Shown piece after piece: positions 1-41,311 of a DNA stretch of 64,000 bases. The notes beneath the pieces were generated by a model. The model saw nothing but the letters and a program-made list of their open reading frames with translations. It had not been told where the DNA came from and searched no databases. The stretch is from the NCBI RefSeq assembly GCF_963921235.1, contig NC_086108.1:58034001-58098000 (forward strand). The letters are read 5' to 3'. Within the stretch, counting starts at the first letter, position 1. Every line of letters begins with the position of its first letter. This stretch comes from Mobula hypostoma (Eukaryota). Both the position numbers and the translations under genes were made by a program.

Positions 1-334
1 TATATACCACCAGACTAGTGAGGATTTAGACACCTGTAAATCTGCTAATACCCACCCCTAATACCTCCTTTGGCAGTTTGTTCCAGGTGCTCACCACTGT
101 GTGGAAAAACCTGTCCCTCAGGACCCTTTTATATCAAATCATCTGAAGTTATACCTGTCCCTTCCAGTTTTACATTCCCTGATGTGGGAACAAGGACTGT
201 GATGATCTACCCTACTGATGCCCCTTGTGATTTTATGAACTTCCATAAGGTCAGCCCTTAGGCTCCGTCGCCACAGGGAAACAGTCCTAGTCAATCCAGT
301 CTCTTCTTTTAACTTAAGCTCTCTAGTCCCAGCA
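1..334 (-). mobile_element. Decayed CR1-type LINE 3' fragment
   Basis: Resembles the reverse-strand 3' ends of the other CR1 copies in the window (e.g. 'caccactgtgtggaaaaacctg' versus 54177-54200). No intact ORF. Confidence 0.55.
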
Positions 335-372
<38 letters not shown>

Positions 373-394
373 ATGCACACACACACACACACAC
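335..394. repeat. (CA)n microsatellite, interrupted, at the 3' end of the Penelope-like element
   Basis: Direct reading: acacacacac... with cgca/catg interruptions. Confidence 0.95.
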
Positions 395-444
395 AACGCT
401 GGAGGAACCCAACAGGCCAGGCAGCATCTATGGAAAAGAGTAAA

Positions 445-482
445 CAGTCGATGTTTCAGGCTGAGACCCTTCATCAGGACTG
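445..482 (-). ncRNA. Minimal type I hammerhead ribozyme motif (Penelope type)
   Basis: Minus strand cagtc-CTGATGA-agg gtctcag cct-GAAAC-ATC-gactg. Both core boxes are present, with stem I cagtc/gactg and stem II agg/cct. The stem III palindrome is ACAT rather than ACGT. Confidence 0.75.
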
Positions 483-516
483 AAGAAAAAAGTTGAGAAG
501 ACAGAGGAAGAAGGTA

Positions 517-3500
517 GGGGGGGTGGGGAGGAAGAAGTACAAGGAGGTAGACAATGAGTGAAACCGGGGGGGGGGGGGGGAGGAGGAAGAAGTACAAGGT
601 GGTAGGCAATGAGTGAAACTGAGGGTGGGGGGGTGGGGGAGAAAGAAGTACAAGGTGGTAGGCAATGAGTGAAACCGGGGGGGGTGGGGTGGGTGGGGAG
701 GAAGAAGTACAAGGTGGTAGGCAATGAGTGAAACCGGGGGGGTGGGGTGGGGTGTGCAGGAAGAAGAACAAGGTGGTAGGCAATGAGTGAAACCGGGGGG
801 GTGGGGTGGGGTGGGGAGGAAGAAGTACAAGGTGGTAGGCAATGAGTGAAACCGGGAGGGTGGGGTGGGGTGTGGAGGAAGAAGTACAAGGTGGTAGGCA
901 ATGAGTGAAACCGGGGGGGGGGTGGGGAGGAAGAAGTACAAGGTGGTAGGCAATGAGTGAAACCGGGGGGGTGGGGTGGGGTGGGGAGGAAGAAGTACAA
1001 GGTGGTAGGCAATGAGTGAAACCGGGGGGGTGGGGTGGGGTGGGGAGGAAGAAGTACAAGGTGGTAGACAATGAGTGAAACCGGGGGGAGGTGAGGAGGA
1101 AGAAGTACAAGGTGGTAGGCAATGAGTGAAACCGGGGGGGGGGTGGGGGGGTGAGTAGGAAGAAGTACAAGGTGGTAGGCAATGAGTGAAACCGGGGGGG
1201 GTGGGGGAGGAAGAAGTACAAGGTGGTAGGCAATGAGTGAAACTGGGGGGGGTGGGGTGGGGTGGGGAGGAAGAAGTACAAGGTGGTAGGCAATGAGTGA
1301 AACCGGGGGGGTGGGGTGGGGGAGGAAGAAGTACAAGGTGGTAGGCAATGAGTGAAACCGGGGGGGGGGGGGTGGGGGAAGAAGTACAAGGTGGTAGGCA
1401 ATGAGTGAAACCGGGGGGGGGGTGGGGGAGGAAGAAGTACAAGGTGGTAGGCAATGAGTGAAACCGGGGGGGGTGGGGTGGGGTGGGGGAGGAAGAAGTA
1501 CAAGGTGGTAGGCAATGAGTGAAACCGGGGGGGGGTGGGGGGGGTGGGGGAGGAAGAAGTACAAGGTGGTAGGCAATGAGTGAAACCGGGGGGGGGGTGG
1601 GGGAAGAAGTACAAGGTGGTAGGCAATGAGTGAAACCGGGGGGGTGGGGTGGGGGAGGAAGAAGTACAAGGTGGTAGGCAATGAGTGAAACCGGGGGGGG
1701 GGTGGGGTGGGGTGGGGGAGGAAGAAGTACAAGGTGGTAGGCAATGAGTGAAACCGGGGGGGGGGGTGGGGGAGGAAGAAGTACAAGGTGGTAGGCAATG
1801 AGTGAAACCGGGGGGGGGGGTGGGGGAGGAAGAAGTAAAAGGTGGTAGGCAATGAGTGAAACCGGGGAGGGGGGTGGGGGAGGAAGAAGTACAAGGTGGT
1901 AGACAATGAGTGAAACCGGGGGGTGGGGAGGAAGAAGTACAAGGTGGGGGGTGAAACCGGGGTGAGGGAGGAAGAAGTACAAGGTGGTAGGCAATGAGTG
2001 AAACCGGGGGGGGGGGTGGGGTGGGGGAGGAAGAAGTACAAGGTGGTAGACAATGAGTGAAACCGGGGGGGGGTGGTGGGGAGGAAGAAGTACAAGGTGG
2101 TAGGCAATGAGTGAAACGGGGGGGGGGGTGGGGGAGGAAGAAGTACAAGGTGGTAGACAATGAGTGAAACCGGGGGGGTGGGGTGGGGTGGGGGAGGAAG
2201 AAGTACAAGGTGGTAGGCAATGAGTGAAACCGGGGGGGTGGGGTGGGGTGTGGAGGAAGAAGTACAAGGTGGTAGGCAATGAGTGAAACCGGGGGGGGGG
2301 GTGGGGAGGAAGAAGTACAAGGTGGTAGGCAATGAGTGAAACCGGGGGGGGGGGTGGGGAGGAAGAAGTACAAGGTGGTAGGCAATGAGTGAAACCGGGG
2401 GGGGGGGGTGGGGAGGAAGAAGTACAAGGTGGTAGGCAATGAGTGAAACCGGGGGGGGGGGTGGGGAGGAAGAAGTACAAGGTGGTAGGCAATGAGTGAA
2501 ACTGGGGGGGGTGGGGTGGGGTGGGGAGGAAGAAGTACAAGGTGGTAGGCAATGAGTGAAACCGGGGGGGTGGGGTGGGGTGGGGAGGAAGAAGTACAAG
2601 GTGGTAGGCAATGAGTGAAACCGGGGGGGGGGGGGGTGGGGAGGAAGAAGTACAAGGTGGTAGACAATGAGTGAAACCGGGGGGGGGGAGGAAGAAGTAC
2701 AAGGTGGGGGGGAGGTGAGGAGGAAGAAGTACAAGGTGGTAGGCAATGAGTGAAACCGGGGGGGGGGTGGGGGGGTGAGTAGGAAGAAGTACAAGGTGGT
2801 AGGCAATGAGTGAAACCGGGGGGGGTGGGGGAGGAAGAAGTACAAGGTGGTAGGCAATGAGTGAAACTGGGGGGGGTGGGGTGGGGTGGGGAGGAAGAAG
2901 TACAAGGTGGTAGGCAATGAGTGAAACCGGGGGGGTGGGGTGGGGTGGGGAGGAAGAAGTACAAGGTGGTAGGCAATGAGTGAAACCGGGGGGGGGGTGG
3001 GGGGGGTGGGGGAGGAAGAAGTACAAGGTGGTAGGCAATGAGTGAAACCGGGGGGGGGTGGGGGAAGAAGTACAAGGTGGTAGGCAATGAGTGAAACCGG
3101 GGGGGTGGGGTGGGGGAGGAAGAAGTACAAGGTGGTAGGCAATGAGTGAAACCGGGGGGGGGGGGAGGAAGAAGTACAAGGTGGTAGGCAATGAGTGAAA
3201 CCGGGGGGGGGGTGGGGTGGGGTGGGGGAGGAAGAAGTACAAGGTGGTAGGCAATGAGTGAAACCGGGGGGGGGTGGGGGTGGTGGGGGAGGAAGAAGTA
3301 CAAGGTGGTAGGCAATGAGTGAAACCGGGGAGGGGGGGTGGGGGAGGAAGAAGTACAACGTGGTAGGCAATGAGTGAAACCGGGGGGTGGGGTGGGGGAG
3401 GAAGAAGTACAAGGTGGTAGGCAATGAGTGAAACCGGGGGGGGGGTGGGGGGGGTGGGGGAGGAAGAAGTACAAGGTGGTAGGCAATGAGTGAAACCGGG

Positions 3501-6500
3501 GGGGGGGTGGGGGAGGAAGAAGTACAAGGTGGTAGGCAATGAGTGAAACCGGGGGGGGGGGGTGGGGGAGGAAGAAGTACAAGGTGGTAGGCAATGAGTG
3601 AAACCGGGGGGGCGGGTGGGGTGGGGGAGGAAGAAGTACAAGGTGGTAGGCAATGAGTGAAACCGGGGTGGGGTGGGGGAGGAAGAAGTACAAGGTGGTA
3701 GGCAATGAGTGAAACCGGGGGGGGGGTGGGGTGGGGTGGGGGAGGAAGAAGTACAAGGTGGTAGGCAATGAGTGAAACCGGGGGGGGGGGTGGGGGTGGT
3801 GGGGGAGGAAGAAGTACAAGGTGGTAGGCAATGAGTGAAACCGGGGAGGGGGGGTGGGGGAGGAAGAAGTACAAGGTGGTAGGCAATGAGTGAAACCGGG
3901 GGGTGGGGTGGGGGAGGAAGAAGTAAAAGGTGGTAGGCAATGAGTGAAACCGGGGAGGGGGGTGGGGGAGGAAGAAGTACAAGGTGGTAGACAATGAGTG
4001 AAACCGGGGGTGGGGGGTGGGGGAGGAAGAAGTACAAGGTGGTAGGCAATGAGTGAAACCGGGGGGGGGTGAGGGAGGAAGAAGTACAAGGTGGTAGGCA
4101 ATGAGTGAAACCGGGGGGGGGGGTGGGGTGGGGGAGGAAGAAGTACAAGGTGGTAGGCAATGAGTGAAACCGGGGTGGGGTGGGGGAGGAAGAAGTACAA
4201 GGTGGTAGGCAATGAGTGAAACTGGGGGGCGGGTGGTGGGGAGGAAGAAGTACAAGGTGGTAGGCAATGAGTGAAACTGGGGGTGGGGGGGGGGGGAGGA
4301 AGAAGTACAAGGTGGTAGGCAATGAGTGAAACCGGGGGGGTGGGGTGGGGTGGGGGAGGAAGAAGTACAAGGTGGTAGACAATGAGTGAAACCGGGGGGG
4401 TGGGGTGGGGTGGGGAGGAAGAAGTACAAGGTGGTAGGCAATGAGTGAAACCGGGGGGGGGTGGGGAGGAAGAAGTACAAGGTGGTAGACAATGAGTGAA
4501 ACCGGGGGGAGGTGAGGAGGAAGAAGTACAAGGTGGTAGGCAATGAGTGAAACCGGGGGGGGGGGGTGGGGGGGTGAGTAGGAAGAAGTACAAGGTGGTA
4601 GGCAATGAGTGAAACCGGGGGGGGTGGGGGAGGAAGAAGTACAAGGTGGTAGGCAATGAGTGAAACTGGGGGGGGTGGGGTGGGGTGGGGAGGAAGAAGT
4701 ACAAGGTGGTAGGCAATGAGTGAAACCGGGGGGGTGGGGTGGGGTGGGGAGGAAGAAGTACAAGGTGGTAGGCAATGAGTGAAACCGGGGGGGTGGGGTG
4801 GGGTGTGGAGGAAGAAGTACAAGGTGGTAGGCAATGAGTGAAACCGGGGGGGGGGGGGGGGGGGAGGAAGAAGTACAAGGTGGTAGGCAATGAGTGAAAC
4901 CGGGGGGGGGGTGGGGTGGGGTGGGGGAGGAAGAAGTACAAGGTGGTAGGCAATGAGTGAAACCGGGGGGGGGGTGGGGGAGGAAGAAGTACAAGGTGGT
5001 AGGCAATGAGTGAAACTGGGGGGGGTGGAGTGGGGTGGGGAGGAAGAAGTACAAGGTGGTAGGCAATGAGTGAAACCGGGGGGGTGGTGGGGTGGGGGAG
5101 GAAGAAGTACAAGGTGGTAGGCAATGAGTGAAACCGGGGGGGTGGGGTGGGGTGGGGAGGAAGAAGTACAAGGTGGTAGACAATGAGTGAAACCGGGGGG
5201 GGGGTGGGGGGGTGAGTAGGAAGAAGTATAAGGTGGTAGGCAATGAGTGAAACCGGGGGGGGTGGGGGAGGAAGAAGTACAAGGTGGTAGGCAATGAGTG
5301 AAACTGGGGGGGGTGGGGTGGGGTGGGGAGGATGAAGTACAAGGTGGTAGGCAATGAGTGAAACCGGGGGGGTGGGGTGGGGGAGGAAGAAGTACAAGGT
5401 GGTAGGCAATGAGTGAAACCGGGGGGGGGGGTGGGGGAAGAAGTACAAGGTGGTAGGCAATGAGTGAAACCGGGGGGGGGGGGTGGGGGAGGAAGAAGTA
5501 CAAGGTGGTAGGCAATGAGTGAAACTGGGGGGGGGGGTGTGGTGGGGTGGGGGAGGAAGAAGTACAAGGTGGTAGGCAATGAGTGAAACCGGGGGGGGGT
5601 GGGGTGGGGTGGGGGAGGAAGAAGTACAAGGTGGTAGGCAATGAGTGAAACCGGGGGGGGGGTGGGGGGGTGGGGGAGGAAGAAGTACAAGGTGGTAGGC
5701 AATGAGTGAAACCGGGGGGGGGTGGGGGAAGAAGTACAAGGTGGTAGGCAATGAGTGAAACCGGGGGGGTGGGGTGGGGGAGGAAGAAGTACAAGGTGGT
5801 AGGCAATGAGTGAAACCGGGGGGGGGTGGGGGCAGAAGTACAAGGTGGTAGGCAATGAGTGAAACCGGGGGGGGGTGGGGTGGGGTGGGGGAGGAAGAAG
5901 TACAAGGTGGTAGGCAATGAGTGAAACCGGGGGGGGGTGGGGGGGTGGGGGAGGAAGAAGTACAAGGTGGTAGGCAATGAGTGAAACCGGGGGGGGGGTG
6001 GGGGAAGAAGTACAAGGTGGTAGGCAATGAGTGAAACCGGGGGGGGGGGGAGGAAGAAGTACAAGGTGGTAGGCAATGAGTGAAACCGGGGGGGGGGGGT
6101 GGGGTGGGGTGGGGGAGGAAGAAGTACAAGGTGGTAGGCAATGAGTGAAACCGGGGGGGGGTGGTGGGGGGTGGAGGAAGAAGTACAAGGTGGAAGGCAA
6201 TGAGTGAAACCGGGGAGGGGGGTGGGGGAGGAAGAAGTACAAGGTGGTAGGCAATGAGTGAAACCGGGGGGGGGGTGGGGGAGGAAGAAGTACAAGGTGG
6301 TAGGCAATGAGTGAAACCGGGGGGGGGTGAGGGAGGAAGAAGTACAAGGTGGTAGGCAATGAGTGAAACCGGGGGGGGGGGTGGGGTGGGGGAGGAAGAA
6401 GTACAAGGTGGTAGGCAATGAGTGAAACCGGGGTGGGGTGGGGGAGGAAGAAGTACAAGGTGGTAGGCAATGAGTGAAACCGGGGGGCGGGTGGTGGGGA

Positions 6501-9500
6501 GGAAGAAGTACAAGGTGGTAGGCAATGAGTGAAACTGGGGGTGGGGGGTGGGGGAGGAAGAAGTACAAGGTGGTAGGCAATGAGTGAAACCGGGGGGGGT
6601 GGGGTGGGGGAGGAAGAAGTACAAGGTGGTAGACAATGAGTGAAACCGGGGGGGGGTGGGGGTGGGGGAGGAAGAAGCAGAAGGTGGTAGGCAATGAGTG
6701 AAACCGGGGGTGGGGTGGGGGGGAGCGGAAGAAGTACAAGGTGGTAGGCAATGAGTGAAACCGGGGGCGGGGTGGGGGGGGTGGAAGAAGTACAAGGTGG
6801 TAGGCAATGAGTGATACCGGCGGGGGGGTGGGGGGGGTTGAAGAAGTACAAGGTGGTAGGCAATGAGTGAAACCGGGGGGTGGGGTGGGGGAGGAAGAAG
6901 TACAAGGTGGTAGGCAATGAGTGAAACCTGGGGGTGGGGGTGGGGGGTGAGGAAGAAGTACAAGGTGGTAGGCAATGAGTGAAACCTGGGGGGTGGTGGG
7001 GGGTGGAGGAAGAAGTACAAGGTGGTAGGCAATGAGTGAAACCGGGGGCGGGGTGGGGGGGGGAGGAAGAAGTACAAGGTGGTAGACAATGAGTGAAACC
7101 GAGGGCGGGGTGGGGGGGGAGGAAGAAGTACAAGGTGGTAGGCAATGAGTGAAACCGGGGGGGTGGGGTGGGGGAGGAAGAAGTACAAGGTGGTAGGCAA
7201 TGAGTGAAACCGGGGGTGGGGGGTGTGGGGGAGGAAGTACAAGGTCGTAGGCAATGAGTGAAACCGGGGGGGGGGTGGGGGAGGAAGAAGTAAAAGGTGG
7301 TAGGCAATGAGTGAAACCGGGGGGGGTGGGGGAGGAAGAAGTACAAGGTGGTAGGCAATGAGTGAAACCGGGGGGGGTGGGGGGGGAGGACGAAGTACAA
7401 GGTGGTAGGCAATGAGTGAAACCGGGGGGGGGGTGGGGTGGGGTGGGGGAGGAAGAAGTACAAGGTGGTAGGCAATGAGTGAAACTGGAGGGGGGGCGGG
7501 TAGTGGGGGAGGAAGAAGTACAAGGTGGTAGGCAATGAGTGAAACCGGGGGGGGTGGGGGAGGTAGAAGTACAAGGTGGTAGGCAATGAGTGAAACCGGG
7601 GGCGGGGGGGTGGGGGAGGAAGAATTACAAGGTGGTAGGCAATGAGTGAAACCGGGGGGGTGGGGTGGGGAGGAAGAAGTACAAGGTGGTAGGCAATGAG
7701 TGAAACCGGGGGGGTGGGGTGGGGAGGAAGAAGTACAAGGTGGTAGACAATGAGTGAAACCGGGGGAGGGGTGGGGGAGGAAGAAGTACAAGGTGGTAGA
7801 CAATGAGTGAAACCGGGGGTGGGGTGGGGGAGGAAGAAGTACAAGGTGGTAGGCAATGAGTGAAACCGAGGGGGTGGGGGAGGAAGAAGTACAAGGTGGT
7901 AGGCAATGAGTGAAACCGGGGGGGGGTGTGGGGTGGGGGAGGAAGAAGTACAAGGTGGAAGGCAATGAGTGAAACCGAGGGGGTGGGGGAGGAAGAAGTA
8001 CAAGGTGGTAGGCAATGAGTGAAACCGGGGGGGGGGGGGGGGGGTGGTGGAGGAAGAAGTACAATGTGGTAGGCAATGAGTGAAACCCGGAGGGGGCGGG
8101 TGGTAGGGGAGAAAGAAGTACAAGGTGGTAGGCAATGAGTGAAACCGGGGGCGGGTGTGGGGTGGGGAGGAAGAAGTACAAGGTGGTAGGCAATGAGTGA
8201 AACCGGGGTGGGGGGTGGGGGAGGAAGAAGTACAAGGTGGTAGGCAATGAGTGAAACCGGAGGGGGGGGGGTTGGGGGAGGAAGAAGTACAAGGTGGTAG
8301 GCAATGAGTGAAACCGGGGGGGGGGGGTGGAAGAAGTACAAGGTGGTAGTGAATGAGTGAAACCGGGGGGGGTGGGGGAGGAAGAAGTACAAGGTGGTAG
8401 GCAATGAGTGAAACCGGGGGGGGTGGGGGACGAAGAAGTACAAGGTGGTAGGCAATGAGTGAAACCGGGGGAGGGGTGGGGGAGGAAGAGGTACAAGGTG
8501 GTAGGCAATGAGTGAAACCGGGGGTGGGGTGGGGGAGGAAGAAGTACAAGGTGGTAGGCAATGAGTGAAACCGGTGGGGGTGGTGGGGTGGGGGAGAAGA
8601 AGTACAAGGTGGTAGGCAATGAGTGAAACCGGAGGGGTGGGGTGGGGTGGGGGAGGAAGAAGTACAAGGTGGTAGGCAATGAGTGAAACTGGAGGGGGGG
8701 CGGGTGGTGGGGGAGGAAGAAGTACAAGGTGGTAGGCAATGAGTGAAACCGGGGGGGGGGGTGAGGGAGGAAGAAGTACAAGGTGGTAGGCAATGAGTGA
8801 AACCGGGGTGGGGGGTGGGGTAGGGGAGGAAGAAGTACAAGGTGGTAGGCAATGAGTGAAACGGGGGGGGTGGGGGAGGAAGAAGTACAAGGTGGTAGGC
8901 AATGAGTGAAACGGGGGGGGGGGTGGAAGAAGTACAAGGTGGTAGGCAATGAGTGAAACGGGGGGGGGGGGTGGAAGAAGTTCAAGGTGGTAGTGAATGA
9001 GTGAAACCGGTGGGGGTGGTGGGGTGGTGGAAGAAGAAGTACAAGGTGGTAGGCAATGAGTGAAACCGGGGGGGGGGTGGGGGAGGAAGAAGTACAAGGT
9101 GGTAGGCAATGAGTGAAACCGGGGGGGCGGGGGTGGAAGAAGTACAAGGTGGTAGGCAATGAGTGAAACCGGGAGAGGGGTGGGGGAGGAAGAAGTACAA
9201 GGTGGTAGGCAATGAGTGAAACCGGGGGGGGGGGTGGGAGGAGGAAGTACAAGGTGGTAGGCAATGAGTGAAACCGGTGGGGGTGGTGGGGTGGGGGAGG
9301 AAGAAGTACAAGGTGGTAGGCAATGAGTGAAACCGAGGCGGGGGAGGAAGAAGTAGAAGGTGGTAGGCAATGAGTGAAACCGGGGGGCGGGTGTGGGGTG
9401 AGGGAGGAAGAAGTACAAGGTGGTAGGCAATGAGTGAAACCGGGGGGGGGGGTGTGGAGGAAGAAGTACAAGGTGGTAGGCAATGAGTGAAACCGGTGGG

Positions 9501-12500
9501 GTGGTGGGGTGGGGGAGGAAGAAGTACAAGGTGGTAGGCAATGAGTGAAACCGGGGGGGGGGTGGAAGAAGTACAAGGTGGTAGTGAATGAGTGAAACCG
9601 GGGGGGTGGTGGGGGAGGAAGAAGTACAAGGTGGTAGGCAATGAGTGAAACCGGGGGGGGTGGGGGAGGAAGATGTACAAGGTGGTAGGCAATGAGTGAA
9701 ACCGGGGGAGGGGTGGGGGAGGAAGAGGTACAAGGTGGTAGGGAATGAGTGAAACCGGGGGTGGGGTGGGGGAGGAAGAAGTACAAGGTGGTAGGCAATG
9801 AGTGAAACCGGTGGGGGTGGTGGGGTGGGGGAGAAGAAGTACAAGGTGGTAGGCAATGAGTGAAACCGGAGGGGTGGGGTGGGGTGGGGGAGGAAGAAGT
9901 ACAAGGTGGTAGGCAATGAGTGAAACCGGGGGGGGGTGGTGAGGGAGGAAGAAGTACAAGGTGGTAGGCAATGAGTGAAACCAGGGTGGGGGGTGGGGTG
10001 GGGGAGGAAGAAGTACAAGGTGGTCGGCAATGAGTGAAACCGGGGGGGGGGGGTGGAAGAAGTACAAGGTGGTAGGCAATGAGTGAAACGGGGGGGGGGG
10101 TTGGAAGAAGTTCAAGGTGGTAGGCAATGAGTGAAACCGGGGGGGGGGTGGGGGAGGAAGAAGTACAAGGTGGTAGGCAATGAGTGAAACCGGGGGGGTG
10201 GGGTGGAAGAAGTACAAGGTGGTAGGCAATGAGTGAAACCGGGAGAGGGGTGGGGGAGGAAGAAGTACAAGGTGGTAGGCAATGAGTGAAACCGGGGGGG
10301 GGGGGGTGGGAGGAGGAAGTACAAGGTGGTAGGCAATGAGTGAAACCGGTGGGGGTGGTGGGGTGGGGGAGGAAGAAGTACAAGGTGGTAGGCAATGAGT
10401 GAAACCGGGGGGGGGGGGGGGAGGAAGAAGTACAAGGTGGTAGGCAATGAGTGAAACCGGGGGGGGGGGGTTTGGGGTGGGGGAGGAAGAAGTACAAGGT
10501 GGAAGGCAATGAGTGAAACCGAGGGGGTGGGGGAGGAAGAAGTACAAGGTGGTAGGCAATGAGTAAAACCGGGGGGGGTGGGGGGCGGTGGAGGAAGAAG
10601 TACCATGTGGTAGGCAATGAGTGAAACCCGGGGGGGGGGGGGCGGGTGGTAGGGGAGGAAGAAGTACAAGGTGGTAGGCAATGAGTGAAACCGGGGGCGG
10701 GTGTGGGGTGGGGAGGAAGAAGTACAAGGTGGTAGGCAATGAGTGAAACCGGGGGGGGGTGTGGAGGAAGAAGTACAAGGTGGTAGGCAATGAGTGAAAC
10801 CGGGGGGGGGGGTTGGGGGAGGAAGAAGTACAAGGTGGTAGGCAATGAGTGAAACCGGTGGGGGTGGTGGGGTGGGGGAGGAAGAAGTACAAGGTGGTAG
10901 GCAATGAGTGAAACCGGGGGGGGGGGGGGGTGGAAGAAGTACAAGGTGGTAGGCAATGAGTGAAACCGGGGGGGGGGGTGGGGGAGGAAGAAGTACAAGG
11001 TGGTAGGCAATGAGTGAAACCGGGGGGGGTGGGGGAGGAAGAAGTACAAGGTGGTAGGCAATGAGTGAAACCGGGGGAGGGGTGGGGGAGGAAGAGGTAC
11101 AAGGTGGTAGGCAATGAGTGAAACCGGGGGTGGGGTGGGGGAGGAAGAAGTACAAGGTGGTAGGCAATGAGTGAAACCGGTGGGGGTGGTGGGGTGGGGG
11201 AGAAAGAAGTACAAGGTGGTAGGCAATGAGTGAAACCGAGGCGGGGGAGGAAGAAGTAGAAGGTGGTAGGCAATGAGTGAAACTGGGGGGGGGGTGTGGG
11301 AGGTAGAAGTACAAGGTGGAAGGCAATGAGTGAAACCGAGGGGGTGGGGGAGGAAGAAGTACAAGGTGGTAGGCAATGAGTGAAACCGAGGGGGGTGGGG
11401 GGTTGGAGGAAGAAGTACAAGGTGGTAGGCAATGAGTGAAACCCGGGGGGGGCGGGTGGTGGGGGAGGAAGAAGTACAAGGTGGTAGGCAATGAGTGAAA
11501 CCGGGGGCGGGTGGGGTGGGTGAGGAAGAAGTACAAGGTGGTAGGCAATGAGTGAAACCGGGGGGGGGGGTGAGGAGGAAGAAGTACAAGGTGGTAGGCA
11601 ATGAGTGAAACCGGGGGGGGGGGGGGGTGGGGTGGGGGAGGAAGAAGTACAAGGTGGTAGGCAATGAGTGAAACTGGGGGTGGGGGGGTGGGGGAGGAAG
11701 AAGTACAAGGTGGTAGGCAATGAGTGAAACCGGGGGGGGGGGGTGGGGAGGAAGAAGTACAAGGTGGTAGGCAATGAGTGAAACCGGGGGCGGGTGTGGG
11801 GTGGGGAGGAAGAAGTACAAGGTGGTAGGCAATGAGTGAAACCGGGGGCGGGGTGGGGGGGGAGGAAGAAGTACAAGGTGGTAGGCAATGAGTGAAACCG
11901 GGGGGGGGTGGGGTGGGGTGGGGGAGGAAGAAGTACAAGGTGGTAGGCAATGAGTGAAACCGGGGGGGGGGGGTGGGGTGGTGGGGGAGGAAGAAGAACA
12001 AGGTGGTAGGCAATGAGTGAAACCGGGGGGGGGGGTGGGGGAGGTAGAAGTACAAGGTGGAAGGCAATGAGTGAAACCGGGGGGGGGGGGTGGGGGAGGA
12101 AGAAGTACAAGGTGGTAGGCAATGAGTGAAACCGGGGGGTGGGGTGGGGGAGGAAGAAGTAAAAGGTGGTAGGCAATGAGTGAAACCGGGGAGGGGGGTG
12201 GGGGAGGAAGAAGTACAAGGTGGTAGACAATGAGTGAAACCGGGGGTGGGGGGTGGGGGAGGAAGAAGTACAAGGTGGTAGGCAATGAGTGAAACCGGGG
12301 GGGGGTGAGGGAGGAAGAAGTACAAGGTGGTAGGCAATGAGTGAAACCGGGGGGGGGGGGGGGGGGGGAGGAAGAAGTACAAGGTGGTAGGCAATGAGTG
12401 AAACCGGGGGGGGTGGGGAGGAAGAAGTACAAGGTGGTAGGCAATGAGTGAAACCGGGGGGGGGGGTGGTGGGGGTGGAAGAAGTACAAGGTGGTAGGCA

Positions 12501-15500
12501 ATGAGTGAAACTGGGGGGGGGGGTGGGGAGGAAGAAGTACAAGGTGGTAGGCAATGAGTGAAACCGGGGGGGGGTGGGGTGGGGTGGGGGAGGAAGAAGT
12601 ACAAGGTGGTAGGCAATGAGTGAAACCGGGGGTGGGGGGTGGGGGAGGAAGAAGTACAAGGTGGTAGGCAATGAGTGAAACCGGGGGGTGGGGTGTGGAG
12701 GAAGAAGTACAAGGTGGTAGGCAATGAGTGAAACCGGGGGGGAGGGGTGGAAGAAGTACAAGGTGGTAGGCAATGAGTGAAACCGGGGGGGGGGGGTGGA
12801 AGAAGTACAAGGTGGTAGGCAATGAGTGAAACCGGGGGTGGGGTGGGTGAGGAAGAAGTACATGGTGGTAGGCAATGAGTGAAACTGGGGTGGGGTGGGG
12901 GAGGAAGAAGTACAAGGTGGTAGGCAATGAGTGAAACCGGGGGGTGGTGGGGTGGGGGAGGAAGAAGTACAAGGTGGTAGGCAATGAGTGAAACTGGGGG
13001 TGGGGTGGGTGAGGAAGAAGTACAAGGTGGTAGGCAATGAGTGAAACTGGGGTGGGGTGGGGGAGGAAGAAGTACAAGGTGGTAGGCAATGAGTGAAACC
13101 GGGGGGTGGTGGGGTGGGGGAGGAAGAAATACAAGGTGGTAGGCAATGAGTGAAACCGGAGGGGGGGCAGGTGGTGGGGGAGGAAGAAGTACAAGGTGGT
13201 AGGCAATGAGTGAAACCGGCGGGGGGGTGGTGGTGGGGGAGGAAGAAGTACAATGTGGTAGGCAATGAGTGAAACCGGGGGGGTGGTGGGGTGGGGGAGG
13301 AAGAAGTACAAGGTGGTAGGCAATGAGTGAAACCGGGGGGGGTGGGGGTGGGGGAGGAAGAAGTAGAAGGTGGTAGGCAATGAGTGAAACCGGGGGCGGG
13401 GTGGGGGGGAGCGGAAGAAGTACAAGGTGGTAGGCAATGAGTGAAACCGGGGGCGGGGTGGGGGGGGTGGAAGAAGTACAAGGTGGTAGGCAATGAGTGA
13501 TACCGGCGGGGGGGTGGGGGGTGTTGAAGAAGTACAAGGTGGTAGGCAATGAGTGAAACCTGGGGGTGGGGGTGGGGGGTGAGGAAGAAGTACAAGGTGG
13601 TAGGCAATGAGTGAAACCTGGGGGGTGGTGGGGGGTGGAGGAAGAAGTACAAGATGGTAGGCAATGAGTGAAACCGGGGGCGGGGTGGGGTGGGGAGGAA
13701 GAAGTACAAGGTGGTAGGCAATGAGTGAAACCGGGGGGGGTGGGGAGGAAGAAGTACAAGGTGGTAGACAATGAGTGAAACCGGGGGCGGGGTGGGGGGG
13801 GGAGGAAGAAGTACAAGGTGGTAGGCAATGAGTGAAACCGGGGGGGTGGGGTGGGGGAGGAAGAAGTACAAGGTGGTAGGCAATGAGTGAAACCGGGGGG
13901 GGTGGGGAGGAAGAAGTACAAGGTGGTAGACAATGAGTGAAACCGGGGGCGGGGTGGGGGGTGGAGGAAGAAGTACAAGGTGGTAGGCAATGAGTGAAAC
14001 CGGGGGCGGGGGGGGGGGGGGGAGGAAGAAGTACAAGGTGGTAGGCAATGAGTGAAACCGGGGGGGTGGGGTGGGGGAGGAAGAAGTACAAGGTGGTCGG
14101 CAATGAGTGAAACCGGGGGGGTGGGGGGGGAGGAAGAAGTACAAGGTGGTAGGCAATGAGTGAAACCGGGGGGTGGGTGGGGGGTGGTGGGGGAGGAAGA
14201 AGTACAAGGTGGTAGGCAATGAGTGAAACCGGGGGGGGGGTGGGGGAGGAAGAAGTACAAGGTGGTAGGCAATGAGTGAAACCGGGGGCGGGTGTGGGGT
14301 GGGGAGGAAGAAGTACAAGGTGGTAGGCAATGAGTGAAACCGGGGGGGGGGGGTGGGGTGGGGGAGGAAGAAGTACAAGGTGGTAGGCAATGAGTGAAAC
14401 CTGGGGGGGTGGGGGGGGAGGAAGAAGTACAAGGTGGTAGGCAATGAGTGAAACCGGGGGGTGGGTGGGGGGTGGTGGGGGAGGAAGAAGTACAAGGTGG
14501 TAGGCAATGAGTGAAACCGGGGGGGGGTGAGGGGGGGAGGAAAAAGTACAAGGTGGTCGGCAATGAGTGAAACCTGGGGGGGTGGGGGGGGAGGAAGAAG
14601 TACAAGGTGGTAGGCAATGAGTGAAACCGGGGGGTGGGTGGGGGGTGGTGGGGGAGGAAGAAGTACAAGGTGGTAGGCAATGAGTGAAACCGGGCGGGGG
14701 GTGGGGGAGGAAGAAGTACAAGGTGGTAGGCAATGAGTGAAACCGGGGGCGGGTGTGGGGTGGGGAGGAAGAAGTACAAGGTGGTAGGCAATGAGTGAAA
14801 CCGGGGGGGGGGGTGGGGTGGGGGAGGAAGAAGTACAAGGTGGTAGGCAATGAGTGAAACCGGGGGGGGGGTTGGGGGAGGAAGAAGTACAAGGTGGTAG
14901 GCAATGAGTGAAACCGGGGGGGGGGTTGGGGGAGGAAGAAGTACAAGGTGGTAGGCAATGAGTGAAACCTGGGGGGGGGGGTGGGGGGTGAGGAAGAAGT
15001 ACAAGGTGGTAGGCAATGAGTGAAACCGGGGGGTGGGGTGGGGTGGGGGAGGAAGAAGTACAAGGTGGTAGGCAATGAGTGAAACCGGGGGGGGGGTTGG
15101 GGGAGGAAGAAGTACAAGGTGGTAGGCAATGAGTGAAACGGGGGGGGTGGGGGAGGAAGTACAAGGTGGTAGGCAATGAGTGAAACCGGGGGTGGGGTTG
15201 GGGAGGAAGAAGTACAAGGTGGTAGGCAATGAGTGAAACCCGGGGGGGGCGGGTGGTGGGGGAGGAAGAAGTACAAGGTGGTAGGCAATGAGTGAAACCG
15301 GGGGGGGGGTGTGGTGGGGGAGGAAGAAGTACAATGTGGTAGGCAATGAGTGAAACCGGGCGGGGGGGGTGTGGAGGAAGAAGTACAAGGTGGTAGGCAA
15401 TGAGTGAAACCGGGGGCGGGGGAGGGTGGGGTGGGGAGGAAGAAGTAGAAGGTGGTAGGCAATGAGTGAAACCGGGGGGGGGGTGGGTTGGGGGAGGAAG

Positions 15501-15891
15501 AAGTACAAGGTGGTAGGCAATGAGTGAAACCGGGGGGTGGGGTGGGGTGGGGGAGGAAGAAGTACAAGGTGGTAGGCAATGAGTGAAACCGGGGGGGGGG
15601 CGTTGGGGGAGGAAGAAGTACAAGGTGGTAGGCAATGAGTGAAACCGGGGGGGGGGGGGGGGAGGAAGTACAAGGTGGTAGACAATGAGTGAAACCGGGG
15701 GGGGGTGGTTGGGGAGGAAGAAGTACAAGGTGGTAGGCAATGAGTGAAACCGGGGTGGGGGGTGGGGTGGGGTGGGGGAGGAAGAAGTACAAGGTGGTAG
15801 GCAATGAGTGAAACCGGGGTGGGGGGTGGGGTGGGGTGGGGGAGGAAGAAGTACAAGGTGGTAGGCAATGAGTGAAACGGGGAGGGTGGGG
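517..15891. repeat. Giant G-rich minisatellite: 38-bp core GAGGAAGAAGTACAAGGTGGTAGGCAATGAGTGAAACC plus a variable ~8-25 nt G-run spacer, roughly 280-300 units (estimated from length)
   Basis: Direct reading. The core is near-invariant and spacers are G runs punctuated by T, occasionally C or A. The + strand is very G/A-rich and C-poor. Confidence 0.98.
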
Positions 15892-16574
15892 AAGTAAAGA
15901 ACTAGAAAGTTGATTGGTGCAAGAGATAAAGGGCTGAAGAAGGGGGAAACTGATTGGAGAGGTAGGAAGAAAGACCATGGGAGAAAGGGAAGGGGGAGCA
16001 GCACCAGAGGCTGATGATGGGCAGGGAAGAAGACAAGGTGAGAGAGGGAAACAGGCATGGGGAATAGTAAGGGGGGGGGCAATTACCGGAAGTCCGAGAA
16101 CATTGATTTTTATTCCTTAATAAATATACCTTTGCCACCTGATTATCACTTCTGTAGATTATATCTGGGAATGCTGAGATGCCAGTTCTATTCTCTCAAC
16201 CATTCTCTCTGAAAATGACTATGCCATATTACCATGCATAGAACAATGGTCTGCCTTAGCAGTCAGATTGCTTGTAATAAAAGCAATATAGCTTTTCATT
16301 CGTCCCATGTGCCATGTTGTGATCATGTCTTTTCTGATTATTGGATTGGTCTCGTTGTCCTGCTACATTTGATCGTACCTCCACCCTGATCTGTACATTT
16401 ATTCTGTGTCCCATTCTCCAGTCAAGTTCGTTTAAGCCCTCCCTCTCTATGGTTCTATGATTCAAAGTTCGTGATTTTCAAGAGGATGTGATAAAAAGAG
16501 AGAGGCAAAGATAAAAGTTTAAATAATTTTAAAATAGAGTGTAAAACATTTCATTTTCTTTTGCACTTTCTCAG

Positions 16575-16719
16575 CCTCTTGCAAAGTTGAAACATCTGAC
16601 CTACTTGGATATGTCGAAGAACAGAATAGAAACTATTGAGTCAGATATTTCTGGATGCGAAGGCCTCGAGGACCTCCTGCTTTCATCCAATATGCTGCAA
16701 CAGCTGCCTGACTCCATAG
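16575..16719 (+). CDS. LRRC7: LRRC7 (Densin-180) internal coding exon, LRR region: [49 protein letters not shown]
   Basis: Polypyrimidine tract with tctcAG acceptor and GTagga donor. 145 nt, phase 0 to 1. The peptide matches my recollection of vertebrate LRRC7 ([10 protein letters not shown]...[19 protein letters not shown]) better than the paralogue ERBIN. Confidence 0.93.
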
Positions 16720-17741
16720 GTAGGAACAATGTTACTATTTTGCATTAATTTTAATCAGCTCCAGTACAGAATCCAAAGAGAAATGAAACAGAGAATGTCT
16801 AAGAGGGATAATTTTCATTTTAATACATTTGCAATGATTTTGAAAGATGACCATAACACAGTAAACAAAATACTCAACCTTCCTGAAAAGAGACACGAAT
16901 TGCTATATGTCTTTTTTTTTATGTGTAGTGCTTGTCAGAATTAAAGACATTATGGTAAACAATCTCATCTCTGTGACTCAGCAGAATGATGAATGTAGTT
17001 CCTTGTATATATAGATGAGAAATACCCAGTTACTTCTAAATGAAGTCATCTTTGGTGGGGAAACAACAGTCCTGATACAATTGTCTGCACACCTCTCAGC
17101 TCAAGGGAGAAGAATATAAACATACCAATTAGGAGAAGGAGTAAGCCTCTCCAGTGCCTCAAGCATATTTTGTATTTTAATAAGATCAAAGCTGATCTAA
17201 TTATAACCTCAACACCCCATTCCTGCCTACTTCTTGCTCATCAAGGATCAACTTTACTGTGCCATTAAAAATGCTCAAAGGCTGTTTCCAGAACCCTTTG
17301 AGGAATACAACCATGTGAAATAATTTCCCTCCTTCTGCCTCAATCAGGTGACCTTTTCTTTTTGTAGTGTAGCTTATTCCACAAAGGAACGCATCTTCTC
17401 AGAATCCACTCAATCTGTCAAAACCTCCAGGATCTGCTTCAATATTGTAATCAAATGCCTTCACATTTTTCTAAATTCCAAGATATCAGTCTGATTTTTA
17501 AGTGTGTTTGTGTGACTATCATACAAGGTTGAGATCTAAATCCAACTTATCTTTGATACTGCTCATTCGTAAAATAATTTGGGTAATGTCTCTGTGGGTT
17601 TATGGATAAAGATTCCACACACTCCACACAATTTGCCACATTTGAAGCTTCTTACAGGCATAATGTGCATTAAAATGAAAGCAAATAAAGAGCTCAAGCT
17701 ATATGCCCATTTACAATGCTAGCCATCCTCTTCTGATGCAT

Positions 17742-17940
17742 ACAACAGGAATTCTGCAGATGCTGGAAATTCAAGCAACATACATCAAAGTTGCTGGTGA
17801 ATGCAGCAGGCCAAGCAGCATCTATAGGAAGAGGTGCAGTCGACGTTTCAGGTCGAGACCCTTCGTCAGGACTAACTGCACCTCTTCCTATAGATGCTGC
17901 TTGGCCTGCTGCGTTCACCAGCAACTTTGATGTATGTTGC
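17742..17940 (-). mobile_element. Short Penelope-derived fold-back insertion with 14-bp target-site duplication
   Basis: 17742-17874 is nearly the reverse complement of 58248-58380. Inverted arms of 66 bp lie at 17775-17840 and 17875-17940. The direct repeat ctcttctgatgcat is at 17728-17741 and 17940-17953. Confidence 0.9.
17838..17873 (-). ncRNA. Minimal type I hammerhead ribozyme motif, intact core
   Basis: Minus strand agtc-CTGACGA-agg gtctcga cct-GAAAC-GTC-gact, with the GUC cleavage triplet and palindromic ACGT stem III. Confidence 0.85.
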
Positions 17941-18570
17941 TCTTCTGATGCATTATTGATTTCTACAACACACGATGGTGATCCGATTGTATGTAGAAGA
18001 AACTGCTTCATGGCATTTATATATTTATGTCATTATTGGAATTAAATCAGTTTCTTCATAAGTGAAGGAGACTTAATTGTAGAATAATTGTGAAGGGACA
18101 AAAACAATGAATATAATTTGGCTGGGAGGTGCAAGTTGGGAAAAATCATCAAAACACTGCCACCTACTGTTGAGACAATTTTTTGCAGAGAAAGATGGTA
18201 AAATGGAATTAAGACTTGGAAACATAGGAACAGAATTTAGGTCATTCAGCTCCATCATTTGATCATGGCTGATTTATTTTCCTCCTTAATTCCATATGCC
18301 ATAACTTTTGCCAATTTTACTAATTAAGAACCTATTTATCTGTGCTTTAAATATACCTAATAACCTGGCCTCCACAGCTGTCTGTGGCAATGAATTCCAC
18401 TGATTCACCACACTCTGTCCAAAGAGATTCCTCCTCATCTCTGTTATAAAGTGTTATCTTTCTATTCTGGGACTGGTCCTGGACTCTTCTTCCTGTTGGA
18501 AACATCCTCCCCACATCCAATCTATCTCTGCCTTTCAATATTCGGTAGGCTTTAGAGAAATTCCTCCTCA

Positions 18571-36272: not shown

Positions 36273-36345
36273 GATTATTGAAAAAACTAACAACACTGAA
36301 GGTCGATGACAACCAGCTAAATGTTTTGCCCAACACAATTGGAGG
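36273..36345 (+). CDS. LRRC7: LRRC7 internal coding exon: (G)LLKKLTTLKVDDNQLNVLPNTIG-G
   Basis: Acceptor ctcatcttttctacttataAG and donor GTaagt. 73 nt, phase 1 to 2, in frame with both neighbouring exons. Confidence 0.93.
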
Positions 36346-36484: not shown

Positions 36485-39400
36485 ATGTCCATGACATTCT
36501 AAAGGGGGAGAGTGAGCAGACAGATGTCTTGGCATATATTGGTACCAATAATTTAGGAAGCAAAAGAGAGGAGGTCATAAAGAGAGAATGTAGGGGGGCT
36601 AGGTAGAAAGCTGAAAAGCAGGACCTCCGGAGTAACAATCCCTGGATTGCTGTCTGTGCATGCACCAGTGAGGGGAAGAATCGGATGATTTGGCAGATGA
36701 CTGCGTGGCTGACGAACTGGTGTAGGGGGCAGGGCTTCCGATGTTTTGGTCATTGTGTTCTCTTCTGGGGAAGGTATGACCTGTACAAAAGGGACGGGCT
36801 GCACTTGAACCTGAGGGGAACCAATATCCTTTCAGGCAGGCTTGCTAGAACTGTTGGGGAAGGTTTAAATTAATTTGGCATCAGGACAGGAACCAAAGTG
36901 ATAGAGCTGATTATAGGGATGTTGGTTTACAAGCAGAGGTAGTGTATAGTGAGACTATCATTAAGGGCAGGCAGATGATAGGGCAAAATAGCAGTCAGTG
37001 GGATGGGTTGCAGTATAAAAGGGGAACAAAATTGAAAATGGTGACAGATATAGGACTGAAGGTGTTATATTTGAATGTACACAGTATATGAGAAAAGGTA
37101 GATAATCTTGTAATGCAGGTAGAGATTGGAAGGTATGATGTGGGTATCACGGAGTCATGGCTGAAAGACAGTTGTAGTTGGCTGCTTAATATTCAAGATA
37201 CATACTCTATCAAAAGGACAGGGAGGTAGGCAGAGGAGGAAGAGTGGCTCTTCTGGTTAAAAAAAAAATGAAATTATTTCTTTAGGAAGAGGTGACATAG
37301 GATCAGAAGATGTAGAATTCTTGTGGGTAGAGTTAAGAAACTGCAAGAGTAAGAAGACCCTGATGAGAGTTATTTACAGGCCTCTGAACGGTAGCCAGGA
37401 TGTGGTCTACAAATTACAGCCTGGTGACAGATAAAACGTCAAAAATGCAGTCATACGTTAGTCATGGGGGTTTTCAATAAGCAGGTAGTTTGGGAAAATT
37501 AAATTGATGCTGGATCCCAGGAGAGAGACTTTATTAAATGCCTCCAAGTTGGCTTTTTGGAGCTGCTTGCCATTGAGCCCACTAGGGGATCAGCAATTAT
37601 GGATTGGGTGTTATGTAATGAACTGAATATGAATAGGGAGCCTAAGATAAAGGAACCCTTAGGAGGTAGTGATCATACTATAATAGAATTCACCCTGCAG
37701 TTTGAGACAGAGAAGCTAAAGTCAGATGTATCAGTATTGTAATGGAGTAAAGGGAATTACAGAGGCATGAAAGAGGAACTGGTCAAAATTGCTTGGAAGG
37801 GGACACTAGAAGGGAGATGGCAGAGCAGAAATAGCTGGAGTTTCTGGGACCAATTTGGAAAGTGCAGGATAGACACATCCTGAAGAAGAGAGAATATTCT
37901 AAAAGCATGGCTAACAAGGGAAGTCAAAGCCAACATAAAATCAAAAGGAAGGGCATATAATAGAGCAAATATTAGTGGGAAATTAGTGGATTGGGAAATT
38001 TTAAAAATCAGCAAAACGCAACTGAAAAAAACATAAGGGGGGAAAGATGAAATATGAAAGTAAGCTAGCCAATAATATCAAAAACGATACCACTCTGTTT
38101 TTCAGATATATAAAGAGTAAAAGAGAGATAAGAGTAGATATTGGACTGCTGGAAGATGATGCTAGAAAGATAATAACGTGGTGGCAGGAGACAAGGAAAT
38201 GCTGAACAAACTGAATAAGTATTTTGCATCAGTCCTCACTGTGGAAAACACTAGTAGTATACCAGAAGTTCAAGAGTGTCAAGGAGCAGAAGTGAGTGCA
38301 GTTGCTATTACTAAGGAGATGGTAGCTGAAGCAATTGTGGTGATCTTTCATGAATCAACAGATTCTGGCATGGTCCCAGAGGACTGGAAAATTACGAATC
38401 TCTTTCACTCTTCAAGAAGGGAGGAAGGCAGAAGAACAGAAATTATAGGCCAGTTAGCCTAATTTCAGTGGTTGACAAGATATTGGAATTGATTGTTAAG
38501 GATGAGGTTTCATGGTACTTGGAGGCACATGACAAAATAGGCCAAAGTCAGCATGGCTCCTTTAAGAGAAAATCTTGCTTGAAAAATCTATTGGAATTCA
38601 TTTGAAAAAATAACCAGCCGGATAGACAAAGGAGAATCAGTGTATTTTGTATAATTGGATTTTCAAAAGGCCATTCACAAGGCGCTGCACATGATACTGC
38701 TAAAAAAAGATATGAGCCCATGATATTACAGGAAAGATACTAGCATGGATAGAGCATTGGCTAATTGGCAGGAGGCAAAGGGTGGGAATAAAGACATCCT
38801 TTTTAGATCGGCTGCTGGTGACTTGTGGTGTTCCATAATTTGGGACTGCTTCTTTTTATGTCGTGTGTCAATGATTTGGATGACAGAATTGATGGCCTTA
38901 TGGCCAAGTTTGCAGATGATATGAAGATTGGTGGAGGGGCCGGTAGTGTTGCGGAAACAGGAAGGTTGAATAGGATTTAGACAGATTAGGAGAATGGGCA
39001 AGGAAGTGGCAACTGAAATACAATGTTGGAAAATGCATGGTCATGCACTTTGGTAGAAGGAATAAATATGCAAACTATTTTCTAAATGGGGAGAAAATCC
39101 AAAAATCTGAGCTGCAAAGGGACTTGGGAGCCCTTGTGCAGAAGACCCTAAAGATTAATTTGCAGGTTGAGTCGGTGGTGAAGAAAGCAACTGCAATGTT
39201 AGCATTCATTTCAAGAGGACTAGAATATAAAAGCAAGGATTGCAGAAGGACTTAGACAAATTAGGAGAATGGGCAAAGAGGCAGATGAAATATGGTCTAG
39301 GGAAGGGTCTGGTCATGCACTTTAGTAGAAGGAATAAAAGCATAGACTATTTTCTAAAAGGGCATTCCGTTTAGGTTAATTTGCAGCACACCTAAAATGC

Positions 39401-40255
39401 TGGTGGAACGCAGCAGGACAGGCAGCATCTATAGGAAGAGGTACAGTTGACGTTTCGGGCCAAGACCCTTAGGACGAAGGGTCTCTGCCCGAAACATCGA
39501 CTGTACCTCTTCCTATAGATGCTGCCTGGCCTGCTGCGTTCCACCAGCATTTTGTGTGTGTTGCTTGAATTTCCAGCATCTGCAGATTTCCTCGTGTTTG
39601 TGAGGATAATTTGCAGGTTGAGTTGGTGGTGAGGAAGGCAACTGCAATGAAAAACTCATTTCAAGAGGACTAGAATATAAAAGCAAAGATGTAATGCTGA
39701 TGCTGCACCAGGCAATTTTGAGCAATTTTGAGCCCTTTATTTAAGAAAGGATGTGCTGACATTGGAGAGGATTCAAAGGAGGTTCATGGGAACGAAAGAG
39801 TTCTCATATGAGCAGTGATTGAAGGCTCTGGGTCTGTATGTGCTGGAATTCAGAAGAATGAGGGGGATTCTCATTGAAACCTATCGAATGTTGAAAGGCC
39901 TTGATGGAGCGAATGTGAGGAGGAGGATGCCTCATTTGGTGGAGGAGTCTAGGACCAGAGGGCACAGTCTCAAAATAGTGGGACGTCCATTTAGAACAGG
40001 GATGAGGAATTTCTTTAGCCAGAGGATGGTGACTCTGTGGAACTCCTTGGCACAGGCAGCTGTGGAGACCAGGTCACTTCGTGTATTGAAGGTGGAGTTT
40101 GATCGATTCTTGATTAGTTAGGATGTGAGAGGATATGGGGAGAAGGAAGGAGAATGGGGTTGACAGGGTAACGGATCACCCATTATGAAATGGTGGAGCA
40201 GACTAAATGAGCCGAATGGCCTAATCCTACTCCAATGTCTTATGTTCTTATGGAG
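36485..40255 (+). mobile_element. Near full-length decayed CR1 LINE (ORF1 SGNH-esterase remnant plus ORF2 EN-RT), with a duplicated RT segment and a Penelope insertion
   Basis: ORF1-like WCRGQGFR...DLYKRDGLHLN (36685-36873), endonuclease SDH (37557-37742), KFADD near 38905, and 3' FFSQRMVTLWNSL. Confidence 0.85.
39387..39602. mobile_element. Head-to-head (palindromic) Penelope 3' cassette
   Basis: Inverted arms of ~84 bp (39387-39470, 39477-39560) surround aggacg. Flanking agg(t/a)taatttgcag occurs at 39373-39386 and 39603-39616. Confidence 0.85.
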
Positions 40256-41311
40256 AATTGTCTCAAGTATAATTAAAAGGCCCTTGGATTAAGTATGTGA
40301 AGGTGGAAAAGTACTTGACCCCAGTATTCCAGCTCAGTTATGCAATATTAATATTTAAGGATTTGGCTTAAATTGCTGTTCATGTAGATCTTAGATCTTC
40401 AGATTTGATCCTCAAATGGTGTGGAAATAAATTGAGCATTGACTTAAATTTTAGTGAGACAAATCCCATTGCATAGCAGAAGGATAGGATTTCTACTATG
40501 CTGTACTTTTCCTCTTTGTTTCTGAAATCTGTCAAGCCAATACAAAACATTATGTAATTTCAAGCAAGTGTAAGTGAACAGAGTTTTCAAAAATCTAAAA
40601 CAAATTAGAAGCAGGCAGCGATCACAATATTAATGATGTTTGCAGATCAAATTAATTACCTTCAGGAGTTCCTTTTAATTATAGTTTGAATGATTCAAAT
40701 CCATTTTAAAGTTTAAGCTAGTTCTTTTGGACATAAGGGGACTTGTAGTTTTAAAAGTTTTTCAATAAAGTTTCTTAAACTTAAGAAGTTGACTATTATA
40801 CAAGTATTCAGAATTGTATTAAAAATAGAATTAGGATTAGTGTAACTGGATGTGATATGGTCAGTGGCAGAAGGGCCTGTTTCTGGTCTCAGCAGGTAGA
40901 CATGTCTATTTCCAGCCCCTATGACATTATTCAATGAATGTATGACTCTGCACAGTTTAGTGAAATTTTTCTGGTTATTTGAAATCACTTAAAATATTAG
41001 ATATTGTAATCAAAAATAATATTTTTGTGCTAAGCTATTTTTAGCTCTATTAACTAAAATGAACTGTTAAAACCTGAAAGATTTTCCCTGATATATTTAA
41101 AAGAATTTCTAATTGCACTTATCCATGACAAAGTTTATATTTGACAATATGCAATAAATGTAAGCAGAAACTTGATAGTTTTCAATTTGCACCTAGATTA
41201 GCTATTTTGCCAAAAATAGAAACCATACTTTATTAATGTTTTAATAATTTAGATTCTGAAGTCACAATGGATTTCAAAAGTAGATTAACTATGCTTTCTT
41301 CTCTTTACCAG

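Follow-up and report, generated by a model that had tools for sequence, protein, structure and literature searches.

How does a transposable element (TE) relic of less than half a kilobase come to span more than 15 kb, and does the ribozyme motif at its edge have any part in this? The question is raised by a 64,000-nucleotide stretch of the Mobula hypostoma genome (assembly GCF_963921235.1, contig NC_086108.1, positions 58,034,001 to 58,098,000; hereafter the window), in which a G-rich tandem array fills a truncated insertion of a Penelope-like element (PLE) close to a hammerhead motif. An initial annotation, made from the letters of the window, read the array as a satellite grown within a Penelope 3' untranslated region (UTR). 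Our analysis indicates that it is very probably a single-locus minisatellite in a truncated Penelope-like insertion, seated in an intron of LRRC7 and built by copying errors at the DNA level, with the hammerhead as a likely passenger.

Structure of the array

Tandem Repeats Finder reports a single array at window positions 517-15891. When it is split at a conserved anchor, 277 anchor sites result, enclosing 276 whole units that average 55.5 bp in length (32-65 bp), each consisting of a 38-bp core, present in 160 exact occurrences and in 275 with at most 4 substitutions, and a spacer of G-runs and (GGGGT)n. The array thus exists much as first described, its 280-300 claimed cores being a slight overcount, and the variable length of the G-run spacers is borne out by 146 distinct spacers among 274. 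There are 191 distinct units; the first 30 letters of the units differ from their mode by 1.1% on average, and the GC skew over the array is about +0.75. A canonical G-quadruplex (G4) motif occurs in 146 of 276 units and in none of the family majority sequence of the host element, whose G-tracts are interrupted by A. A 19-mer private to the array is found 241 times in the 3.48-Gb genome, all 241 inside the window, indicating a single-locus minisatellite, for which the term satellite says too much; 15 kb of repeats at one intronic locus do not make a classical satellite DNA.

517-15891, plus strand: minisatellite of 277 units, 38-bp core and G-run/(GGGGT)n spacer, the G-rich strand being the plus strand
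521-529, plus strand: left-hand member of the pair of 9-bp direct repeats between which the array lies, identical to 15884-15892
15884-15892, plus strand: right copy of the same repeat, identical to 521-529

A stop-free frame of 5,325 codons on the minus strand (139-16116) was considered as a gene and rejected, as the C-rich strand of the unit is almost without stops and the lengths of the units follow no triplet rule (91 of 276 being divisible by 3). The frame is a by-product of the stop-less unit and could mislead gene predictors.

The host Penelope-like element

The right flank of the array has at least 4,048 candidate sites in the genome, and at 19 of 19 other fetched right-flank loci (L002-L020) the left flank is adjacent and colinear with it; in an alignment of 22 copies the unit segment occurs once per copy. 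These results confirm the proposal that the flanks join into one minus-strand Penelope remnant, and support the view that one segment between two G/C tracts of its 3' end, ~53-55 bp long, was amplified in place. With the array counted as a single unit the relic measures ~0.45 kb, and its two flanks share 88% and 84% identity with the family majority. Its identity as a Penelope remnant is upheld, with an extent different from the 385-16108 first given: it runs from ~331, through a CA microsatellite, to ~16116, and keeps only ~10 codons of the open reading frame (ORF), whose stop at 16083-16085 matches that of the family as the initial annotation had it. The insertion is old, and no target-site duplication is evident by eye at its two ends. 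In PLEs the region from the stop codon to the hammerhead constitutes the pseudo-long terminal repeat (pseudo-LTR; PMC11167929).

~331 to ~16116, minus strand: 5'-truncated Penelope-like relic with the last ~10 ORF codons, 3' UTR/pseudo-LTR, hammerhead and AC-rich end
16083-16085, minus strand: stop codon of the element ORF (TTA on the plus strand), from alignment with family copies
335-395, no strand assigned: (CA)30 microsatellite replacing the short ACAC tract of the element near its 3' end

Longer family copies, read on the minus strand, share a common C-terminal peptide. The ORF end of copy L003 is 67% identical to a 358-aa frame at window 56874-57947, which has a Pfam GIY-YIG match above cut-off; the L003 piece alone has 0 Pfam matches, the 358-aa fragment has no reverse transcriptase match in Pfam, and there is no full-length family copy among the sequences examined. 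The GIY-YIG match reached through the family copies, together with the hammerhead, identifies the family of the host relic as Penelope-like and endonuclease-bearing. The (CA)30 tract is likely a second in-place expansion within this relic copy.

Probable birth of the array between direct repeats

Among direct repeats spaced 25-89 apart in the 507-bp family majority, the longest exact one is a 10-bp G-rich word whose two copies stand 53 bp apart and bound the unit exactly. The 9-bp repeat bounding the array is homologous to it and represents the signature of the Haber-Louis model, as in PMC3389668 and PMC6947457. Best-fit junctions for the window array and 9 others fall at majority positions 170-190 and 223-241, overlapping the repeat pair, with periods of 50-56; 10 of 14 arrays were usable in this mapping, L061, L062, L091 and L155 being mis-chained and excluded. 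An imperfect repeat at spacing 51 also overlaps the 10-bp pair and by eye fits a 51-bp array at C12:185.4 Mb. The locus shows three features by which TE-derived minisatellites are recognised, namely in-register TE sequence on both sides, a flanking repeat of 5-20 bp, and a single locus with interspersed variants.

Recurrence at other loci

Paired-anchor searches revealed tandem copies of the segment at ~36 loci besides the window array, so that the check for independent expansions elsewhere was positive. The first unit anchor gave 12 tandem loci and the second at least 25, among 100 of 111 matches listed, with 2 common to the first anchor. Per anchor match this amounts to 12/3,114 and at least 25/14,836 for the unit versus 2/6,625 and 8/25,901 for two control anchors, that is, 0.39% and 0.17% versus 0.03% for both controls (odds ratios 12.6 and 5.5, p<2e-6; the first is 6.3 with contig C82 left out). 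For arrays of at least 3 units the rates are 0.29% and 0.12% versus 0.015% and 0.012%.

At each of the 13 recurrent loci fetched, the array is in register within a family copy and has its own unit. Nine of them hold 7-34 units and three hold 2-3; the remaining one is a second giant array of 12.5 kb (C50:2677292-2689784; L091, L092), in which a 69-bp unit from an overlapping segment of another family copy is repeated ~182 times. Six arrays on C82 likewise differ in their units, which resemble one another at 77-90% from array to array, and apart from dispersed repeats they showed no long flanking sequence in common.

The interval C82:12.7-14.9 Mb (L155-L160) contains at least 7 family copies with arrays, six of them fetched and with 2-34 units, amid other G-rich tandem repeats, which hints at a region of a small chromosome that is prone to minisatellites. 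At C67:56.31 Mb (L163) a 36-bp unit from the control segment of the family is repeated 20.5 times, and a neighbouring copy holds a 68-bp unit repeated 3.7 times.

Growth and age of the array

By edit-distance block alignment, 239 of 276 units belong to duplicated blocks whose scores exceed those of each of 25 order-shuffles. Ordered blocks recur (for instance units 137-168 with 160-193, 110-119 with 232-241, and 53-69 with 201-218), and there are 4 recurrences of an exact run of 3-4 identical units, against none in 100 shuffles. Such a structure would fit stepwise unequal exchange or conversion, and the ordered recurrence argues against a single rolling-circle burst or inflation by the assembler.

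Three related organisms (B, C and D) have contigs with the orthologous flank running into the relic (45 bp only in D), which dates the insertion to before those splits. The flank differs from that of organism B by 1.7% (21 of ~1,220 letters), and the unit head from its mode by the 1.1% given above. The private motif reaches a depth of 5,576-11,260 in X1, a run of the source organism, and of 0-34 in B and C, the single-copy flank depths being 13, 4.5 and 7-9; at 88% likeness the unit is in excess over the family segment in X1 and shows no excess in B, C and D. This depth contrast is a strong hint that the array is real and lineage-restricted. Neither an array-spanning nor a flank-joining contig was found in any run examined (X1, B, C, D).

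The hammerhead motif

The hammerhead lies where the initial annotation put it, ~35 bp from the first unit and with a predicted cut near 450, or more exactly between 450 and 449. Hammerhead motifs are defined here as in PMC4209133.

445-482, minus strand: minimal type I hammerhead with a 5-bp stem I, an intact CUGAUGA and GAAA core, and stem II

Of the features expected of an active minimal hammerhead, the CUGANGA/GAAA core is present together with both stems (I and II), and the palindrome at positions 15.2-16.2, which would permit a dimeric helix III, is lost. The palindromic helix III is altered at window 452, likely by CpG decay. Among 66 family copies, positions 15.2-16.2 are intact in 9 and both parts of the motif in 4. 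A scan of the window found 3 hammerhead motifs, 0 of them inside 517-15891, and the nearest on the same strand, at 17838-17869, is 17 kb off. Rfam gave 0 matches in the window at gathering score, and single-strand folding of the motif region yielded z values of -0.1 and -0.7, within those of shuffles. A stable fold is not expected of a minimal hammerhead alone. Minimal PLE hammerheads require a dimer, a single motif showing no in vitro cleavage (PMC4209133).

The special link once drawn between ribozyme and array does not hold. The 35 bp between them is the family's own spacing (34 bp to the G-tract in the majority of the 66 copies), the motif lies outside the unit, its helix III has decayed, and a 16-letter piece of it occurs 25,901 times genome-wide; with more than 25,000 similar motifs in the genome, the hammerhead beside the array is likely a bystander.

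The motif at 17838-17869 (minus strand) has both its core and helix III intact. Inverted two-armed short insertions of the hammerhead end occur at window 17735-17941 and 39383-39603.

The LRRC7 intron

The array sits in an intron of LRRC7, a context absent from the earlier reading. Pfam searches with 150 of 190 open frames (at least 62 aa) around the array gave 1 match, a leucine-rich repeat (LRR) exon just downstream, whose peptide has the same sequence as LRRC7 in two rays and one shark. Seven plus-strand LRRC7 exons with AG/GT ends and compatible splice phases bracket the array; searches of PDB and Atlas returned generic LRR or LAP leads only.

16575-16719, plus strand: LRRC7 (densin-180) coding exon, 145 bp, AG..GT, with Pfam LRR matches and 100% peptide identity to chondrichthyan LRRC7
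~36273-36345, ~41311-41441 and ~47918-48032, plus strand: downstream LRRC7 exons (approximate), compatible phases
L094 ~4345-4420, L170 ~615-680 and L169 ~2730-2785, plus strand: further LRRC7 exons (approximate), compatible phases

The preceding exon ends near L094:4420, giving a host intron of ~22 kb of which the array makes up ~69%; the array ends ~680 bp upstream of the LRRC7 acceptor and contributes 738 G-runs to the pre-mRNA. Since the exons are on the plus strand, the G-rich strand is the host sense strand, present in the pre-mRNA, and the hammerhead is antisense. The earlier idea of a ribozyme motif ending an antisense transcript of the array probably fails, the motif being antisense to LRRC7 and its helix III decayed.

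Proposed origin of the array

We propose that the short repeats would have given rise to the first dimer, either through slippage or through unequal exchange, as in the Haber-Louis model, and that blocks of units would then have been multiplied by further unequal exchange or else by gene conversion, probably later than the split from the closest relative sampled. An A-to-T difference in the G-tract of this copy may have created the (GGGGT)n microsatellite, whose own slipping would account for the variable spacers. In the least certain step, to which we give somewhat less than even confidence, growth would have been accelerated by G4s or R-loops forming on the G-rich strand, which is the non-template one in this transcribed intron. 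A function is unnecessary to explain the array.

Several results weigh against this origin or parts of it. A short direct repeat is insufficient alone: the 46-bp arrays predicted from a 9-bp repeat of the family (spacing 46) were not found, the 2 loci having periods of 30 and 42. Both perfect 10-mers are kept in only 2 of 66 single copies. As regards recurrence, 6 of the 12 first-anchor loci cluster in C82:12.7-14.9 Mb, a region rich in other tandem repeats; many second-anchor arrays have other periods (32-60 bp), some belong to sister subfamilies, and they are known from the anchors without flanks; the hammerhead segment that served as a control likewise forms small arrays, at 8 loci; and the rates were normalised with two control anchors only. 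A stricter block test, cruder and insensitive, leaves 32 of 276 units in significant blocks. Across 12 arrays the G4 score does not follow array size (Spearman 0.14, p 0.66; canonical motifs 0.55, p 0.07). The C50 array of 12.5 kb is almost devoid of canonical G4 motifs. Finally, summed contig depth is not copy number and X1 is possibly the source sample, so that length and recency are without independent proof.

The first dimer might instead go back to the insertion event itself, the reverse transcriptase template having slipped across the G-tracts, with growth at the DNA level following only later. With both perfect 10-mers surviving in so few present-day copies, seeding would be easiest in young ones, and PMC3389668 finds that younger TEs have given more tandem repeats, for which it proposes a connection with retrotransposition. 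Almost all units, however, carry copy-private substitutions that are lacking in family copies, which points to amplification or homogenisation after divergence; relatives with the same insertion stay near single-copy depth, and the 9-bp repeat of the copy itself fits the junction, so we regard a dimer made at insertion as unlikely without being far-fetched. The ribozyme has also to be considered as the engine, in the form of a retrozyme-like rolling-circle RNA reverse-transcribed into a tandem array. PLE-derived vertebrate retrozymes with up to 300 units have been described, including one chondrichthyan example (bioRxiv 10.64898/2026.07.22.740005), and tandem arrays with a hammerhead in the unit exist elsewhere in this genome. 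The unit of the window array, however, lacks the hammerhead, the defining feature; the array lies in register inside an intact single relic at one locus, and its nested block duplications favour stepwise DNA turnover over one burst, leaving such an origin a next to negligible chance. The array as a whole is not a new ribozyme system.

Copying errors at the DNA level would be beside the point if a short array had been inflated by the assembler and its spacer variation consisted of homopolymer errors. G-homopolymers are error-prone in sequencing, long G-runs agree in only 4 of 9 matched block pairs, and no spanning record was seen in the runs examined; but this agreement exceeds that of random same-signature pairs (84 of 575), the 191 distinct units include substitution variants that recur in ordered blocks far apart, and the private motif in X1 has a contig depth several hundred times that of single-copy sequence. 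An artefact is therefore highly improbable. The array might instead be functional or selected, as a multiplied pseudo-LTR promoter for an antisense RNA ending at the hammerhead or as a G-run modulator of LRRC7 splicing or transcription. The pseudo-LTR, the region amplified here, likely holds the promoter from which PLEs are transcribed (PMC11167929), and the position ~680 bp before the acceptor and the G-runs in the pre-mRNA would suit such a role; yet the array is seemingly confined to one organism among those sampled, expansion recurs at many unrelated loci, and helix III of the hammerhead has decayed, all of which makes selection very unlikely. Improbable as a whole is the far-reaching combination in which the G-rich stretch of the pseudo-LTR is a genome-wide minisatellite nursery, its thousands of dispersed copies of known ancestral sequence giving rise independently to dozens of arrays of 2 to 277 units, in which runaway growth sets in once a point change converts the tract into G4-forming (GGGGT)n on the non-template strand of a transcribed intron, and in which the resulting hypermutable, lineage-specific array alters LRRC7 transcription or splicing in brain.

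Comparison with known systems

Minisatellites derived from TEs are already known, among them Alu-derived ones (Jurka and Gentles 2006), the mouse MaLR-derived Ms6-hm and a variable number of tandem repeats (VNTR) family derived from the short interspersed nuclear element B1, all as cited in PMC3389668 and PMC6947457. The window array resembles them in that an internal TE segment was amplified in place between short direct repeats, and the pseudo-LTR segment acts as a recurrent hotspot just as certain regions of AluS and LTR12 do in PMC3389668. It differs in its source, a Penelope-like pseudo-LTR (the word Penelope occurs 0 times in PMC6947457), in its 277 units, which exceed the norm of ~100 quoted there, in a unit that holds its own slipping microsatellite, and in the existence of two independent arrays of more than 12 kb from the same segment. 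Neither this array nor a recurrent minisatellite hotspot of Penelope origin was found in a literature search that left subscription journals, supplements, Dfam and Repbase outside its scope.

The human minisatellites CEB1 and CEB25 (PMC3486850, PMC2673046) resemble the window array in that G is concentrated on one strand, the units measure tens of bases, and G4 motifs occur (here in 146 of 276 units); CEB1 shows G4-dependent instability in yeast (PMC3486850). Unlike them, the window array is interstitial and intronic rather than subtelomeric, its G4s are predicted from motifs alone, and G4 score does not predict size among the sister arrays.

The PLE hammerheads of Cervera and De la Pena (2014; PMC4209133) are, like the present one, minimal type I motifs of a terminal repeat, found mostly in truncated single copies; the window copy differs in lacking the palindromic helix III pair. 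Non-LTR retrozymes also form tandem arrays from PLE pseudo-LTRs, with units from 51 bp and up to 300 copies (bioRxiv 10.64898/2026.07.22.740005), but they carry a hammerhead in each unit, whereas the unit of the window array starts 35 bp away from it. Identity as a non-LTR retrozyme, which calls for a hammerhead in at least 2 consecutive units, was accordingly considered and rejected, as there is no hammerhead motif within the array. The retrozyme tandem pattern is better fitted by other arrays of this genome with a hammerhead in the unit: a 54-bp unit repeated 7.6 times at C67:62.56-62.58 Mb (L161, L162), present twice, inverted and ~14 kb apart, and a 36-bp unit repeated 13.4 times at C40:14.479 Mb (L164).

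Known models cover 6% of human TE-derived tandem repeats (PMC3389668), and the birth of minisatellites is only partly explained. In the present family, dozens of arrays of every size from dimer to 15 kb have been born independently from a single ancestral sequence, so that the causal roles of microhomology, G4 potential, transcription strand and local recombination can be tested directly. The locus itself, by which one LRRC7 intron has been tripled, is likely a hypervariable marker.

Other features of the window

A younger Penelope-like copy of a sister subfamily occupies 56874-58386 on the plus strand and comprises the 358-aa GIY-YIG frame, a 3' UTR that differs from the relic's, and, at 58253-58284, a hammerhead. 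Fragmented frames resembling a long interspersed nuclear element lie at 54051-56499 on the minus strand; they are endonuclease- and reverse transcriptase-like, presumably of the CR1/L2 type. An unrelated minisatellite is found at 58758-59076, where a 19-bp unit is repeated 17 times with 93% matches.

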